Shown piece after piece: positions 1 to 39,910 of a stretch of DNA of 40,549 nucleotides. The stretch is from Escherichia coli. Lineage in GTDB: Bacteria; Pseudomonadota; Gammaproteobacteria; Enterobacterales; Enterobacteriaceae. The position numbers and the translations under genes are program-made. How positions within the stretch are numbered: position 1 is the first letter of the stretch; each line of letters opens with the position of its first letter. The notes below the pieces were generated by a model that made no database searches, was not told the origin of the DNA, and saw only the letters and a list, made by a program, of their open reading frames with translations. The DNA lies in assembly GCF_003334765.1 (NCBI RefSeq), contig NZ_QOWT01000035.1. One strand, given 5' to 3'.

Positions 1-102
1 GCTGAACTGTTGCTGGAAGACTACAAAGCCTCCCTGAAATATCTCAGCGATCACCCGAAACTGCAGGGTATTGCCCAACAGAACAGCTTTAAACATACCT
101 GA
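1..102 (+). CDS. gadB: glutamate decarboxylase beta, 3' end only (N-terminus lies upstream of window)
   Basis: Frame 1 translation of 1..99 reads [33 protein letters not shown] followed by TGA at 100-102, matching the GadB C-terminus as I recall it; gadC follows immediately. Confidence 0.85.
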
Positions 103-257
103 TAACGTTTAACGGTAACGGTGTCCCGAAACGAACCCGTTTCGGGACAATTTCCAAAGTCTGTTCACTGGCATTAGCAACGGAAAGTATTGTTCTGAAT
201 ACGCTTCAGAACAAAACAGGTGCGGTTCCGACAGGAATACCGTTTTAGGGGGATAAT

Positions 258-5013: not shown

Positions 5014-7413
5014 ATGAAGCTAACCGATGCGGATAATGCCGCCGATGGCATTTTTTTCCCCGCCCTTGAGCAAAATATGATGGGTGCGGTGTTAATTAAC
5101 GAAAATGATGAAGTGATGTTTTTCAACCCCGCCGCAGAGAAGCTCTGGGGATACAAACGTGAAGAAGTCATTGGCAATAACATTGATATGCTGATTCCGC
5201 GGGATTTGCGTCCTGCGCATCCTGAATACATTCGTCACAACCGTGAAGGCGGTAAAGCGCGTGTTGAGGGGATGAGTCGGGAGCTGCAGCTGGAGAAAAA
5301 AGACGGCAGTAAAATCTGGACCCGTTTTGCGCTATCGAAAGTGAGCGCCGAGGGGAAAGTTTATTACCTGGCGCTGGTACGGGATGCCAGCGTAGAAATG
5401 GCGCAAAAAGAACAGACCCGACAATTGATTATTGCCGTTGACCATCTCGACCGACCGGTGATTGTCCTCGATCCGGAACGCCATATTGTGCAGTGCAATC
5501 GCGCATTTACCGAAATGTTTGGTTACTGCATTAGCGAAGCCAGCGGTATGCAGCCCGATACACTCCTGAACATTCCTGAATTCCCTGCCGATAACCGCAT
5601 TCGTTTACAACAGTTGCTATGGAAAACCGCCCGCGATCAGGACGAATTTCTGCTGTTGACGCGCACCGGTGAAAAAATCTGGATTAAAGCCTCTATCAGC
5701 CCGGTTTATGACGTGCTCGCGCATCTGCAGAACCTGGTAATGACTTTCTCGGATATCACCGAAGAACGGCAGATTCGCCAGCTTGAAGGCAATATTCTCG
5801 CCGCCATGTGCAGCAGCCCGCCATTTCATGAAATGGGGGAAATCATTTGTCGTAACATCGAATCTGTACTCAACGAATCGCATGTTTCGCTGTTCGCACT
5901 GCGCAACGGGATGCCGATACACTGGGCGTCATCTTCCCACGGTGCAGAAATTCAAAATGCGCAAAGCTGGTCAGCGACCATTCGTCAGCGTGATGGCGCG
6001 CCTGCGGGGATCCTGCAAATTAAAACCTCGTCAGGAGCAGAAACCAGCGCCTTTATCGAACGCGTGGCAGATATCAGCCAGCATATGGCCGCGCTGGCGC
6101 TGGAACAGGAAAAAAGCCGTCAGCATATTGAACAACTCATCCAATTTGATCCGATGACCGGTCTGCCAAATCGCAATAACCTGCACAATTACCTCGATGA
6201 CCTGGTCGACAAAGCCGTCTCTCCCGTGGTGTATCTCATCGGTGTTGACCATATTCAGGATGTGATTGATAGCCTTGGCTATGCGTGGGCCGATCAGGCA
6301 TTGCTGGAAGTGGTCAATCGCTTTCGTGAAAAACTCAAACCGGATCAGTATCTCTGTCGTATCGAAGGTACGCAGTTTGTCCTCGTGAGCCTCGAAAACG
6401 ACGTCAGTAACATTACCCAAATCGCCGATGAGCTACGGAATGTGGTCAGCAAGCCGATAATGATTGACGATAAACCCTTCCCGCTTACCTTGAGTATTGG
6501 CATCAGCTACGACCTGGGTAAAAACCGCGATTACTTGCTCTCCACTGCTCACAATGCAATGGATTATATTCGCAAGAATGGCGGTAACGGCTGGCAGTTC
6601 TTCAGCCCGGCGATGAACGAAATGGTAAAAGAGCGTTTGGTTTTAGGCGCAGCGCTGAAAGAAGCGATTAGCAATAACCAACTGAAACTGGTTTACCAGC
6701 CGCAAATCTTCGCAGAAACGGGTGAACTGTACGGCATCGAAGCCCTTGCTCGCTGGCACGATCCCCTGCATGGTCATGTGCCCCCTTCACGGTTTATTCC
6801 TCTCGCAGAAGAGATTGGTGAAATCGAAAATATTGGGCGCTGGGTCATCGCGGAAGCTTGCCGTCAGTTAGCAGAATGGCGTAGCCAGAATATTCATATC
6901 CCGGCGTTATCCGTGAACTTGTCGGCGCTGCACTTTCGCAGTAATCAACTGCCTAATCAGGTGTCTGATGCAATGCACGCCTGGGGTATTGACGGCCACC
7001 AGCTGACGGTAGAAATCACGGAAAGCATGATGATGGAACACGATACCGAAATCTTTAAGCGCATTCAGATCCTGCGTGATATGGGCGTGGGCTTATCGGT
7101 AGATGATTTTGGTACGGGCTTTTCCGGATTATCCCGCTTAGTCAGTCTTCCGGTAACGGAAATCAAAATTGACAAAAGTTTTGTCGATCGTTGTCTGACC
7201 GAAAAACGCATCCTTGCCTTACTTGAAGCCATTACCAGCATTGGGCAAAGCCTCAATTTAACCGTCGTGGCGGAAGGCGTCGAAACCAAAGAGCAATTTG
7301 AGATGCTACGCAAGATCCACTGTCGCGTTATTCAGGGATATTTCTTTTCCCGCCCCCTACCCGCCGAAGAAATTCCAGGCTGGATGAGCAGCGTGTTACC
7401 GCTGAAAATCTGA
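5014..7413 (+). CDS. dosP: heme-PAS c-di-GMP phosphodiesterase (O2 sensor), 799 aa
   Basis: ORF track gives 4990..7413 (807 aa); the start is placed at the internal ATG (MKLTDADNAADGIFF...) to give the 799-aa length I recall for DosP. EAL motif (YGIEALARW) and a degenerate GGDEF region are visible. Start 25 nt after the dosC stop. Confidence 0.9.
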   Translation: MKLTDADNAADGIFFPALEQNMMGAVLINENDEVMFFNPAAEKLWGYKREEVIGNNIDMLIPRDLRPAHPEYIRHNREGGKARVEGMSRELQLEKKDGSKIWTRFALSKVSAEGKVYYLALVRDASVEMAQKEQTRQLIIAVDHLDRPVIVLDPERHIVQCNRAFTEMFGYCISEASGMQPDTLLNIPEFPADNRIRLQQLLWKTARDQDEFLLLTRTGEKIWIKASISPVYDVLAHLQNLVMTFSDITEERQIRQLEGNILAAMCSSPPFHEMGEIICRNIESVLNESHVSLFALRNGMPIHWASSSHGAEIQNAQSWSATIRQRDGAPAGILQIKTSSGAETSAFIERVADISQHMAALALEQEKSRQHIEQLIQFDPMTGLPNRNNLHNYLDDLVDKAVSPVVYLIGVDHIQDVIDSLGYAWADQALLEVVNRFREKLKPDQYLCRIEGTQFVLVSLENDVSNITQIADELRNVVSKPIMIDDKPFPLTLSIGISYDLGKNRDYLLSTAHNAMDYIRKNGGNGWQFFSPAMNEMVKERLVLGAALKEAISNNQLKLVYQPQIFAETGELYGIEALARWHDPLHGHVPPSRFIPLAEEIGEIENIGRWVIAEACRQLAEWRSQNIHIPALSVNLSALHFRSNQLPNQVSDAMHAWGIDGHQLTVEITESMMMEHDTEIFKRIQILRDMGVGLSVDDFGTGFSGLSRLVSLPVTEIKIDKSFVDRCLTEKRILALLEAITSIGQSLNLTVVAEGVETKEQFEMLRKIHCRVIQGYFFSRPLPAEEIPGWMSSVLPLKI

Positions 7414-11733: not shown

Positions 11734-12716
11734 CCCAACCCGTTCTGGACATTCAACAACTGCATTTGAGTTTCCCCGGTTTTAACGGTGATGTTCACGC
11801 GCTCAACAATGTGTCCTTGCAGATTAACCGCGGTGAAATTGTCGGTCTGGTGGGAGAATCCGGCTCAGGTAAATCAGTCACCGCAATGCTGATTATGCGT
11901 CTGCTACCGACGGGCAGTTATTGCGTACATCGGGGGCAGATTTCCCTGCTGGGAGAAGATGTTCTTAACGCGCGGGAAAAACAGCTTCGTCAGTGGCGCG
12001 GCGCACGAGTGGCGATGATCTTTCAGGAACCGATGACCGCCCTCAATCCGACACGTCGAATAGGTCTTCAGATGATGGACGTGATCCGCCATCATCAACC
12101 AATAAGTCGTCGGGAAGCCAGAGCTAAAGCGATTGACCTGCTGGAAGAGATGCAAATCCCGGATGCCGTGGAAGTTATGTCGCGCTATCCGTTTGAGCTT
12201 TCAGGTGGTATGCGCCAGCGGGTAATGATTGCGCTGGCATTCTCCTGCGAGCCGCAATTGATTATTGCCGACGAACCGACTACGGCGCTGGACGTCACGG
12301 TGCAGTTGCAGGTACTGCGTTTGCTTAAACATAAAGCCCGCGCCAGTGGAACTGCGGTTCTGTTCATCAGCCATGATATGGCCGTGGTGTCGCAACTGTG
12401 CGATAGCGTTTACGTGATGTATGCCGGAAGCGTAATTGAAAGCGGCGTGACGGCAGACGTTATCCATCATCCCCGGCATCCGTATACCATTGGTTTGCTG
12501 CAATGCGCACCAGAACATGGAGTACCACGCCAGCTATTACCCGCCATTCCAGGGACGGTACCAAACCTCACCCATTTGCCTGACGGCTGCGCTTTTCGCG
12601 ATCGTTGCTATGCGGCAGGTGCACAGTGTGAAAACGTCCCGGCGCTGACAGCGTGTGGTGACAACAACCAGCGCTGTGCCTGTTGGTATCCGCAGCAGGA
12701 GGTTATAAGTGTCTGA
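11730..12716 (+). CDS. ddpD: ABC transporter ATP-binding protein, 328 aa
   Basis: Walker A GESGSGKS and signature LSGGMRQR visible; ATGA overlap with ddpC. Confidence 0.92.
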   Translation: MTQPVLDIQQLHLSFPGFNGDVHALNNVSLQINRGEIVGLVGESGSGKSVTAMLIMRLLPTGSYCVHRGQISLLGEDVLNAREKQLRQWRGARVAMIFQEPMTALNPTRRIGLQMMDVIRHHQPISRREARAKAIDLLEEMQIPDAVEVMSRYPFELSGGMRQRVMIALAFSCEPQLIIADEPTTALDVTVQLQVLRLLKHKARASGTAVLFISHDMAVVSQLCDSVYVMYAGSVIESGVTADVIHHPRHPYTIGLLQCAPEHGVPRQLLPAIPGTVPNLTHLPDGCAFRDRCYAAGAQCENVPALTACGDNNQRCACWYPQQEVISV

Positions 12717-36723: not shown

Positions 36724-36895
36724 CAGGCGTTTCCCTTAGTGGTTTTCTCAACTTATAACCTGGAATAGACGCCGCACCGGCTATTTTGTGCGATCGCGGA
36801 CATGCATCACGTTCGCAAATCGCCAATCCCGTTAATTTCGTTACTTATTGCGTTACGGACTACGCTTAAAAAAACCTTCTTCGCGAGGCGATACC

Positions 36896-37465
36896 ATGAG
36901 CCGATTCATCCCCATAGAATTACACCATGCCAGCCGTCTGTTAAATCATGGCCCAACGGTCTTGATCACCAGTTTCGATGAGCAATCCCAGCGGCGTAAC
37001 ATTATGGCTGCAGCCTGGTCAATGCCGGTGGAGTTTGAACCTCCACGCGTGGCGATTGTGGTAGATAAATCGACATGGACCAGGGAGTTGATTGAACATA
37101 ACGGTAAATTTGGCATCGTTATCCCGGGCGTTGCAGCAACTAACTGGACGTGGGCGGTGGGAAGTGTGTCGGGGCGTGATGAAGATAAATTTAATTGCTA
37201 TGGCATTCCGGTTGTGAGAGGCCCGGTATTTGGTTTGCCTCTGGTCGAGGAAAAATGTCTGGCGTGGATGGAGTGTCGATTGCTACCTGCGACTTCTGCG
37301 CAAGAAGAATACGACACGCTGTTTGGCGAAGTAGTATCAGCAGCGGCAGACGCACGGGTATTTGTCGAAGGCCGCTGGCAGTTTGATGATGATAAGCTCA
37401 ATACGTTGCATCATTTAGGTGCTGGGACGTTTGTTACCAGCGGCAAGCGTGTTACGGCGGGTTAA
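36896..37465 (+). CDS. yddH: flavin-reductase-like protein, 189 aa
   Basis: ORF track gives 205 aa from 36848; start placed at [11 protein letters not shown]... to give the recalled 189 aa. Confidence 0.85.
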
Positions 37466-37695
37466 GCATTCATGCTATAACCAGGTTTCTTTATCAAAGC
37501 CTCCATTTGGGGCGCGATTTCGGCATCCCAGATAGCTTGCCAAGATTCTGGTTGAATCTGCTGTAGAGCAATGCTTATCGAACTGTCTTTACTGTTCAGA
37601 TGACGAATAATAACGTCGGTAATATCTGCAGCAAGTGCTGCTTTTTGTTGTTCGTCCAGTTCACGCGGAAAACATTTAATGTCGATGTGCGGCAT
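37462..37695 (-). CDS. pptA: tautomerase (4-oxalocrotonate tautomerase family), 77 aa
   Basis: ORF track gives 90 aa from 37734; the recalled PptA starts at [16 protein letters not shown]... with the family's catalytic N-terminal Pro after Met; convergent with yddH and overlapping it by 4 nt. Confidence 0.85.
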
Positions 37696-37781
37696 GATTA
37701 CGCTCCTTTTGAAAGATGTCAGTAAAATTAACACACATTGTGAATGTCATGTGTCCGGTAAAGCGTTTATACGACAATAAT

Positions 37782-39078
37782 GCCCAGGGCAAGATTACGA
37801 AAGCCCGCTCCCCGTAAGGACTGACGCCAGGTAGTTTCTGTCCATGGCTGCTTTTCGCATCTTACGTCTTAACCCTGCCTTGAATACCTTATCATTCGTC
37901 AAAATATTAATAGCAATGTGCCGTATCCCTGAAAATAATTCTGCTGCATTTCCTCTTCTTATTTTGCAGTCGTCTTCATTCATTACCACGTCCAGACGCC
38001 AGTGCAGCTTATTCTCCACGTGCCAGTGATTTCGGATCGCTGTGGCGAATTTCTCAGCGGTTAAATCAGCAGAACTGATATAATATCTGACCGTCATTTC
38101 TGGCTCTTTCTTTTGTTCTGCTATTATGGACCGAAAGGAGACTGCCACGCATAATTTCTTCAGCCCTTTCCATTCAAACGTGAAATCAATAAGTTCATCA
38201 GGGACATCGCAAACAATATGAAGACGGATTTCTTCTCTGCCGTGACTCTTTTCACTCATTGCGTAACTGTCATGCGCTGGATTATTTAATTCTTTCAGCG
38301 GAAATTTTTCCTCAAAGGCTTTATTTAGCCGCCCCTGGTTTCCTTTTACCGCGAATAAATAATCACCTCCCTGTTTTTGTATCTTCTCTGCAATATCTTT
38401 CTGGCAACCCATCGCATCAGTTGTGATGATTTTTCCTTTAATATCCAGCATGTTAAGAAGTTCTGGGATAGCTGTAATCTCATTAGATTTCTCATCCGTC
38501 TTGATCTGTCCGATGACCAGACTGTGCATTGTTGAGAACGCACTAATGACATGAATCGCTCCCCTGCGGCGACTCTTGTCATAAGAGTGCCGGAGCGTTT
38601 TTCCATCAATTGCAATGACGTCTTTATCATCTGAAGAATGGCAGTCACGCATCCAGTTAATAAAGCACTCGTGAAATTTTGCAGGACTGATACAGGATAC
38701 AACTCTGGCAATGGTATCGTGAACAGGAATACCATTTTCAAAATCACCATATTGCTTCAAAAAATCGAGATGTGTTTCCCCAAAATCCTCTATATCTTCC
38801 CAACCTTCTGCACCAGAAATAACGGCACAAATAGTCAACAGTAGAATATCCGATAATTTATGTTCCACTTTCCAGGTTTGTCTGTAATCGGGGATAATAG
38901 AAATATGTTCCATCAATTTTTTAAGTTCCATTTTGTTCTCCTTAATTAGGTAAGGAGTATTTGATCATGTATAAGCAATAAAAAACAGCTTCAGGTAATA
39001 AGGAATATCTCAATTTTTAAACATAAAATGCGAATTATTTAGTGCAAAAAGTGAACTTTTGATGATCTTTCCCTGGCC
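37782..39078 (-). mobile_element. ISAs1-family (H-repeat, H-rpt) insertion element, about 1.3 kb
   Basis: Contains the 378-aa H-rpt transposase; imperfect terminal inverted repeats seen by eye (GCCCAGGGCAAGATTACGAAA at 37782-37802 versus the reverse complement of 39058-39078, GGCCAGGGAAAGATCATCAAA, about 16/21 identical). Boundaries are approximate. Confidence 0.6.
37795..38931 (-). CDS. ydcC: ISAs1-family transposase (H repeat-associated protein), 378 aa
   Basis: 378-aa ORF recognised as the H-rpt protein YdcC of the RhsE locus; stop codon lies inside the terminal inverted repeat. Confidence 0.9.
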
Positions 39079-39176
39079 GTTGACTCGATTGCCGTAGCTC
39101 GAACGCAAGCACTCTTATCATTCAATGCCATATTGTTCAAAATATTAAAAACATTATCTTCGCATTTTTTGCAAAT

Positions 39177-39422
39177 TTATATTTGCCCGAGTATAAATGC
39201 TCCGATATCTCTACGGATATAATTTTTGTCAGTGCAGAATTCAATTGCCAATCTAACAGCGTCTTGCCCCCCTCTTAACTGTAATACTCTGGCAGATGAA
39301 ATCCTTTTCAAGGAATTGCGATCATCAAGTAAGCGAAATAATTCATCATCATTTAGTTTCTTACATTTATTATATAAACCATACTCTTTACTTGCCTTTC
39401 TTTTCTGGTATGTATTTGACAT
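39177..39422 (-). pseudogene. truncated yibA-like HEAT-repeat protein gene (N-terminal ~80 codons only)
   Basis: Translation MSNTYQKRKASKEYGLYNKCKKLNDDELFRLLDDRNSLKRISSARVLQLRGGQDAVRLAIEFCTDKNYIRRDIGAFILGQI closely matches the N-terminus of YibA (rhsA locus) as I recall it, then stops; full-length YibA is about 280 aa. Confidence 0.65.
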
Positions 39423-39526
39423 TGCAGGAACCTCCATAAAGGCTATCTTTTTCTATCGTTTGACTGTCTGGAGTCCTCCACCTACTCTGCCATCAGCGCA
39501 CACGATGTTTGATTATCCTTACATAC

Positions 39527-39910
39527 TTATTTTCCGTGGCCAAAATTCAGAATTCTCCCATCATTTTTGCCTATTTCTATAATAAAAACCCCACCAGCAA
39601 TTTGGTCTGAGTGAATGGTACCTTCAACAACCCAACTTGTTGTTAACTCAGTGATTTCGTATGGTTTTTCTTCTTCTGCGGCATCCTGTCCATAACGATT
39701 CTTAACATATATCTCAGCTAATTCCAATGCTATAGCTTTATTTTTAACCAAATTTCTAACGGTATATTTACCTTCACTTTCATACTTGCGCATTATTTTA
39801 ATATTATTATTACACTGCGCCCATGTGTTGTATGTAAAAACAAACAAAGATACAATGACACAGTTCCTAAACAATATTTTTTTACATATTACCATGAACT
39901 CTGCAGACAT
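39527..39910 (-). CDS. ydcD: hypothetical protein, probable Rhs-tip immunity protein, 127 aa in this sequence
   Basis: AT-rich ORF overlapping the 3' end of the Rhs toxin-tip ORF by 29 nt, the typical toxin/immunity arrangement; hydrophobic N-terminus. No in-frame extension is possible upstream (stop 7 codons before the ATG). Confidence 0.7.

Follow-up and report, generated by a model that had tools for sequence, protein, structure and literature searches.

The Escherichia coli pseudogene yrhC as the probable 5' remnant of an orphan yibA-type gene of the rhsB locus

An open reading frame (ORF) on the minus strand of an E. coli contig is identified here, by its sequence and by its gene order, as the E. 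coli K-12 pseudogene yrhC (b4552), which is already annotated and thus nothing new. We read yrhC as the decayed 5' 41% of an orphan yibA-type gene that most likely yields no functional protein and whose history would comprise three steps, and we assign this reading as a whole a probability of about 0.88. The proposed steps are displacement of an older toxin/immunity pair, a deletion bounded by an insertion sequence (IS) and point inactivation, which would make yrhC a tidy example of Rhs-locus decay, of little weight by itself. Coordinates refer to the analysed window, the whole 40,549-nt stretch of contig NZ_QOWT01000035.1.

The ORF runs on the minus strand from an ATG at 39422 to a TAA at 39179–39177 (39177..39422) and comprises 246 nt, that is, 81 sense codons plus the stop; the initial annotation had recognized a real ORF and miscounted it as 80 codons. 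Its product aligns end to end with residues 1–81 of YibA (PDB 1oyz), 78/81 residues being identical (96%, E = 6e-47) and the differences being Q19K, H35R and S64T, so the description of the ORF as an almost residue-for-residue copy of the YibA N-terminus was accurate. The pairwise alignment with the rhsA–yibA region, suggested at the same time, was run against K-12 and gave 97% DNA identity across 402 nt (window 39474..39073), not the lack of significant similarity that would have spoken against a yibA origin. A chance ORF, considered as another candidate, is ruled out by the E-value of the protein match and by DNA identities of 97–100%. The correspondence with yrhC is exact: in MG1655 the pseudogene occupies 3623887–3624132 and its 246 nt equal window 39422..39177, while the 399-nt yibA-type segment as a whole shows 0 differences (100% identity) from MG1655 3623835–3624233. 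Gene order agrees as well, the fragment lying between a rhsB tip with yhhH on one side and an ISAs1-family element on the other, as in MG1655, BL21-AI and HSP425. In other genomes, PGAP labels the same feature 'HEAT repeat domain-containing protein; internal stop; missing C-terminus'. In K-12, yrhC sits between yhhH and yhhI in the rhsB locus, and the window copy shares with it the ORF, the TAA, the H-rpt junction and the upstream rhsB tip and yhhH, the fragment itself being without any difference; what differs is the far side of the IS, which in the window is the RhsE-locus flank (pptA, yddH, nhoA) and not yhhJ. In the literature, the name yrhC was found in one genome announcement only, with no product reported.

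The DNA homology to yibA is longer than the ORF on both sides, spanning 39474..39076. Upstream of the ATG it extends for 52 nt to 39474 and includes a yibA-type leader (39423..39442, minus strand), recognized by reading the sequence and by alignment with the K-12 yibA leader, with a ribosome-binding site (GGAGG, 8 nt 5' of the ATG). Ahead of the leader, the alignment with the K-12 rhsA–yibA locus places a 3'-terminal relic of an rhsA-type toxin ORF, 32 nt long and including the stop codon (39443..39474, minus strand): on that locus (L007), homology starts at 5286 and the rhsA coding sequence ends at 5317. Judged by this alignment, the 32-nt relic marks the left edge of the yibA-type homology. 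On the other side, translation and alignments reveal an in-frame yibA continuation made up of codons 83–115 and 2 nt of codon 116 (39076..39176, minus strand); past the TAA, the frame runs for 34 more codons to 39076 and matches YibA perfectly (ICKKCEDNVFNILNNMALNDKSACVRATAIEST). True truncation thus falls at codon 116, with 347/843 nt (41%) of yibA retained. At the breakpoint (window 39040–39076, minus strand), the yibA frame runs into the IS end for 11 codons (RERSSKVHFLH) before reaching a stop, a fusion tail that is fortuitous and without significance given the upstream TAA.

The neighbourhood of the fragment is that expected of a displaced immunity gene. On the same strand an rhsB-type rhs gene, interrupted by the edge of the window, contributes its 3' end (39882..40549, minus strand), which consists of the end of the core and a DUF4329 C-terminal tip. 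NCBIfam RHS_core and Rhs_assc_core match its residues 1–57 (the last ~57 core codons), Pfam DUF4329 is recorded on the same rhs gene in related contigs, and the part present is 99.7–100% identical to rhsB of K-12 and HSP425. There follows yhhH (39527..39910, minus strand), which encodes a 127-aa protein of the Imm-NTF2-2 family, is annotated as yhhH / PF15631 in K-12 and other genomes and is presumed to be the cognate immunity gene of the rhsB tip. According to the account of Vlazny & Hill (1995) given in PMC3150448, YibA, encoded directly downstream of rhsA, neutralizes the growth block caused by the RhsA C-terminus. C-terminal displacement has been described in Rhs loci, where a new tip/immunity cassette displaces the older pair and orphans the old immunity gene (Jackson et al. 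2009, PMC2935791).

The fragment occupies the position expected of such an orphan, following the rhsB tip and yhhH, with 39474..39443 matching the 3' end of K-12 rhsA, and the vestige of the rhsA-type toxin ORF is the signature expected of C-terminal displacement. With the orphan arrays of Rhs and CDI systems (PMC2935791, PMC3150448) it shares a location downstream of an active tip/immunity pair, a toxin-ORF vestige ahead, related arrays at other loci or in other strains, and disruption by IS elements. It departs from them in that the immunity gene is not intact, interrupted as it is by the nonsense codon at position 82 and the truncation at codon 116, and in that the toxin-tip remainder is no longer than 32 nt. 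Set against YibA itself (b3594; PDB 1oyz), it has in common the in-frame homology to residue 115/116, the leader and the last 32 nt of rhsA, but it keeps only 41% of the gene, stops at codon 82 and has another toxin tip ahead of it (DUF4329 / yhhH). Alignment and gene order therefore bear out the original description, in which an Rhs element holds the orphaned 5' part of a yibA-type gene. As a first step, an rhsB-type tip with its yhhH cassette would have arrived by C-terminal displacement upstream of an rhsA-tip/yibA pair, leaving the last 32 nt of the old toxin ORF and yibA as an orphan. The boundaries of this replacement come directly from the comparison with the rhsA–yibA locus, and the order of events is what we infer from them.

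The 3' boundary of the fragment coincides with an ISAs1-family H-rpt/ISEc1 element of 1291 bp (37785..39075, minus strand). Its 11-bp terminal inverted repeats are CAGGGAAAGAT and CAGGGCAAGAT, the right end reads ...ATCTTGCCCTG, and its transposase ORF is intact (378 aa, 38931..37795; NCBIfam transpos_ISAs1, E = 2.7e-125). Homology to yibA stops exactly at the left inverted repeat, at 39076/39075, where ...TCAACGGC on the yibA side is directly joined to CAGGGAAAG on the IS side; in the longer read of the junction, ...TCAACGGC continues into CAGGGAAAGATC, with CAGGGAAAGAT as the left terminal inverted repeat. The earlier suggestion that the gene was broken at the adjacent ISAs1-family element is supported by this exact coincidence. 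The arrangement is that of an IS-bounded truncation beside the H-rpt elements of Rhs loci (ISEc1: yhhI, ydcC), the homology ending at the first base of the terminal repeat and the transposase ORF being intact, as in those elements. It differs from a simple H-rpt/ISEc1 insertion in that the window has neither a target duplication nor a remaining 3' half of yibA.

A simple insertion of H-rpt at yibA codon 116, with the downstream half lost later by recombination between H-rpt copies, would equally place the junction exactly at the IS terminal repeat, and H-rpt copies do recombine or interchange, as the mosaics among them attest. We nevertheless regard this course of events as unlikely. A search of both flanks for a target-site duplication found no shared repeat around the element, and the rest of yibA is not found across the IS, where canonical genomes have yhhJ-side DNA and the window has pptA; because both the duplication and the 3' half are missing, the junction is not a simple insertion allele. 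The intermediate that such an insertion would have produced, an H-rpt right end beside the 3' part of yibA, occurs in 0/5,426 complete genomes. Finally, strains in which a full-length yibA still lies 2.2 kb left of the IS have the same right IS junction at the rhsB locus.

Those strains also show what the locus carried in longer form. Strains 631 and Z0117EC0051 carry at their rhsB locus, in this order, yhhH', yibA, rhs', sel1, IS630', ISAs1' (an H-rpt remnant) and yhhJ; the H-rpt right junction with the yhhJ side is as in K-12, whereas the left junction differs. Some 2.18 kb that separate yibA nt 347 from the left end of the IS in strain 631 are missing from the type found in K-12 and in the window. 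The idea of a longer ancestral cassette is thereby substantiated, since other strains carry yhhH, full-length yibA, an orphan rhs fragment and a sel1 gene. In the second step, accordingly, a stretch of about 2.2 kb ending precisely at the left inverted repeat of a resident H-rpt/ISEc1 would have been deleted, with loss of yibA codons 117–280 and about 1.7 kb of orphan DNA (the rhs fragment and the sel1-type gene). That the IS was in place before the loss is suggested by its right junction, which is common to strains with full-length yibA lying 2.2 kb to the left. Both the junction and the longer relatives can be seen in the genomes themselves; for the mechanism, IS-mediated adjacent deletion is favoured because of the shared right junction, the loss of ~2.18 kb and the absence of any H-rpt right end beside the yibA 3' part. 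No direct deletion intermediate was found.

The junction is widespread. The combination of yhhH, fragment and IS junction is present in 1,815/5,426 complete E. coli genomes (about a third), and yhhH followed by full-length yibA in 1,185/5,426. In strains 204446 and O104:H4, yhhH and full-length yibA lie at the rhsA locus. There, the main rhs gene with its rhsB-type tip is annotated in both strains as a pseudogene carrying a frameshift or internal stop (L002 2409–6645 in 204446 and L010 2711–6946 in O104:H4), and the downstream full-length yibA is annotated as frameshifted in 204446 and as intact in O104:H4.

The end of the ORF is a separate lesion. It is created by a substitution at codon 82, which reads TAA here and AAA (Lys82) in all full-length yibA genes examined, and the nonsense codon lies 101 nt before the truncation point at 39076. 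The ORF is thus terminated by a point nonsense mutation and not, as had been proposed, by the rearrangement. Because yibA-like sequence continues past it, the stop appears to be a secondary lesion in an already truncated gene. In-frame similarity beyond 39177 had been anticipated in the initial annotation as a possible observation and is indeed found, yet the inference of a sequencing frameshift drawn from it is mistaken: no frameshift exists, and the stop is a substitution common to many independent assemblies. The TAA is also present in MG1655, BL21-AI and HSP425 and is carried by almost every one of the roughly 1,750 complete genomes that have the junction, a frequency obtained with an AAA version of the junction query, to which the sampled junction genomes were 99.3% identical (one mismatch) and only the top record 100% identical. 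This distribution indicates that the stop is not a sequencing error.

We consider it next to impossible, in consequence, that the stop at 39177–39179 is an error of sequencing or assembly and the gene really longer or intact. Such an error would explain why yibA similarity goes on in frame past the stop, and one complete genome, AS19-RrmA-, does have AAA at codon 82. Against it stand the TAA in the three genomes named above (with yrhC annotated in MG1655 as exactly 246 nt), the single mismatch left by the AAA query in all sampled junction genomes other than the top-ranked record, and the fact that, even without the stop, the gene would end at codon 116 against the IS. The exceptional record, the single 100% match to the AAA query, is a mutagenized B strain whose relatives have TAA; its yrhC remnant (NZ_CP027430.1, L012, locus 1279–1629) carries AAA apparently as a secondary reversion, because the other B strains have TAA.

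The nonsense mutation belongs to a third step, in which the dead copy would have gathered AAA to TAA at codon 82 together with 3 missense and 4 synonymous changes. In its coding part, the fragment departs from full-length yibA at 8 sites (3 missense, 1 nonsense, 4 synonymous), all private to the truncated copy; at each of them, three full-length copies taken from different loci and strains are the same. The best full-length matches stay at about 98%, which again marks the 8 substitutions as private. A comparison of the 4 synonymous with the 4 non-synonymous or nonsense changes involves too few sites to show relaxed selection.

As regards function, family similarity is clear and full-length similarity is lacking. 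The product matches NCBIfam NF007244 (PRK09687, HEAT-repeat 'putative lyase') with E = 2.8e-31; the score is 108.9 bits against a cutoff of 275, and the match covers only profile positions 1–81 of 285. On the conceptual product of 116 residues, Pfam HEAT_2 gives a weak match (E = 0.001). By these profile matches, the fragment is a gene remnant and not a functional member of the YibA family, and yrhC most likely has no functional protein; folding or toxin binding is unlikely for 81 of the 280 residues of a HEAT solenoid.

An 81-aa peptide could nonetheless be made, since the ribosome-binding site and the ATG are intact and no terminator is predicted after yhhH: a promoter/terminator scan gave nothing above shuffled expectation and no terminator-like site between yhhH and the ORF on the same strand. 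If co-transcribed with rhsB–yhhH, the 81-codon ORF might then act as a mini-protein, whether as a partial antidote, a decoy or a regulator. Its retention with the same sequence in about one-third of complete E. coli genomes fits such a role, as does the finding, in related systems, that immunity genes left as orphans can still be expressed (Poole et al. 2011, PMC3150448). This role seems very improbable to us, given how little of a solenoid protein is left and that the homology past the stop marks the stop as a secondary lesion; the literature search, moreover, found no report of a product. Wide conservation of yrhC is explained by its linkage to rhsB–yhhH and by recent common ancestry. We therefore retain the reading of yrhC as a remnant.

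The remnant may have played a passive part in the exchange of cassettes between Rhs loci. Compared with the rhsA-locus cassette of strain 204446, the first 1,179 nt, a block that runs from the end of the Rhs core through the tip, yhhH and the spacer to nt 54 of the ORF, contain 2 differences in the window and none in K-12, against 8 differences in the last 293 nt (Fisher p = 7e-5, with the boundary chosen post hoc). Zero divergence sets in within the Rhs core, about 350 nt from its end. In strain 204446, the 3 leader SNPs match yrhC, and from the start of the coding sequence onwards the type is that of the K-12 rhsA locus. From the distribution of SNPs relative to the 204446 cassette, a recombination breakpoint would lie in the interval 39369..39436 (minus strand). 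This pattern is most simply read as the rhsB and rhsA loci having exchanged the tip/yhhH cassette once, the left crossover falling in the conserved core and the right one in the 5' end of yibA/yrhC (window 39436..39369). That the 5' homology of yrhC served, perhaps recurrently, as the crossover site, a passive homology arm, for exchange of the rhsB-type tip and yhhH between the two loci seems to us about evenly balanced. The initial annotation had called such orphan modules raw material for Rhs tip/immunity shuffling; the SNP pattern lends this indirect support as far as a homology arm in cassette exchange is concerned, and not as far as a reusable module is meant. Read in this manner, the pattern would offer a concrete case in which a dead remnant of an immunity gene supplies the downstream homology arm when two Rhs loci exchange a tip/immunity cassette.

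The context of the fragment in the window requires caution on the far side of the IS. Window 40547..37785 corresponds to the rhsB locus and 39075..36800 to the RhsE locus (ydcC, pptA, yddH), the overlap being the IS. Beyond the IS, the RhsE side carries pptA, yddH, nhoA and nar, and the rhsB side carries the rhsB tip, yhhH and yrhC. A join of rhsB and RhsE DNA across the IS was found in 1/5,426 complete genomes, that of Origami2-DE3 (NZ_CP084529.1). In that genome (L003, locus 11890–12001), ~110 nt of an IS5 left end are fused to the 3' part of an rhs core beside lnt, and the fused rhs fragment is followed by yhhH, yrhC, IS and pptA; the IS5/rhs fusion is either an odd rearrangement or a misassembly. 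The closest complete relatives of the window, HSP425, H3, BS74R-D and OZ547038, are 100% identical to it in both flanks, yet have canonical rhsB and RhsE loci.

The IS of the window, a mosaic of the two copies found at these loci in K-12, alternates in four blocks, resembling in turn the rhsB copy, the RhsE copy, the rhsB copy and the RhsE copy, and the three switches fall in the three longest stretches in which the two copies are identical (239, 155 and 189 nt). A majority consensus of all H-rpt copies, considered as another origin of this IS sequence, is ruled out by so specific a mosaic. No complete genome has an identical IS together with the pptA flank, the best reaching 99.4%. In the assembly collection, the exact transposase protein occurs in at least 41 blocks; among the matches listed, 9/10 have the same chimeric order, and 7 of these 9 places have an identical IS. 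The places with chimeric order are mostly draft contigs of 40.4–43 kb that end inside the rhs gene, and one lies in a background 1% diverged. The first position of the window lies 99 nt ahead of the gadB stop, in the gadA/gadB repeat (window 1–257), and its last position about 120 nt into the conserved Rhs core repeat (40429–40549), so that, with both ends in repeats, the window looks like a whole short-read contig bounded by them.

We regard it as quite probable that the rhsB/RhsE join arose when the assembly was led through a repeat present in two copies; were the two directly repeated IS copies really joined, some 2.1–2.3 Mb would have to be duplicated. Locus-level statements drawn from the window, such as 'inside this Rhs locus' or 'next to pptA/nhoA', are therefore not to be trusted, whereas the fragment and the left IS junction are unaffected, since both are confirmed in complete genomes. 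Elsewhere in the window (20299–23346, minus strand), two adjacent ORFs of 195 and 803 aa stand where matching genomes have fdnG, a pattern that we take to be the one expected from the in-frame TGA selenocysteine codon of formate dehydrogenase-N and not from a broken gene.
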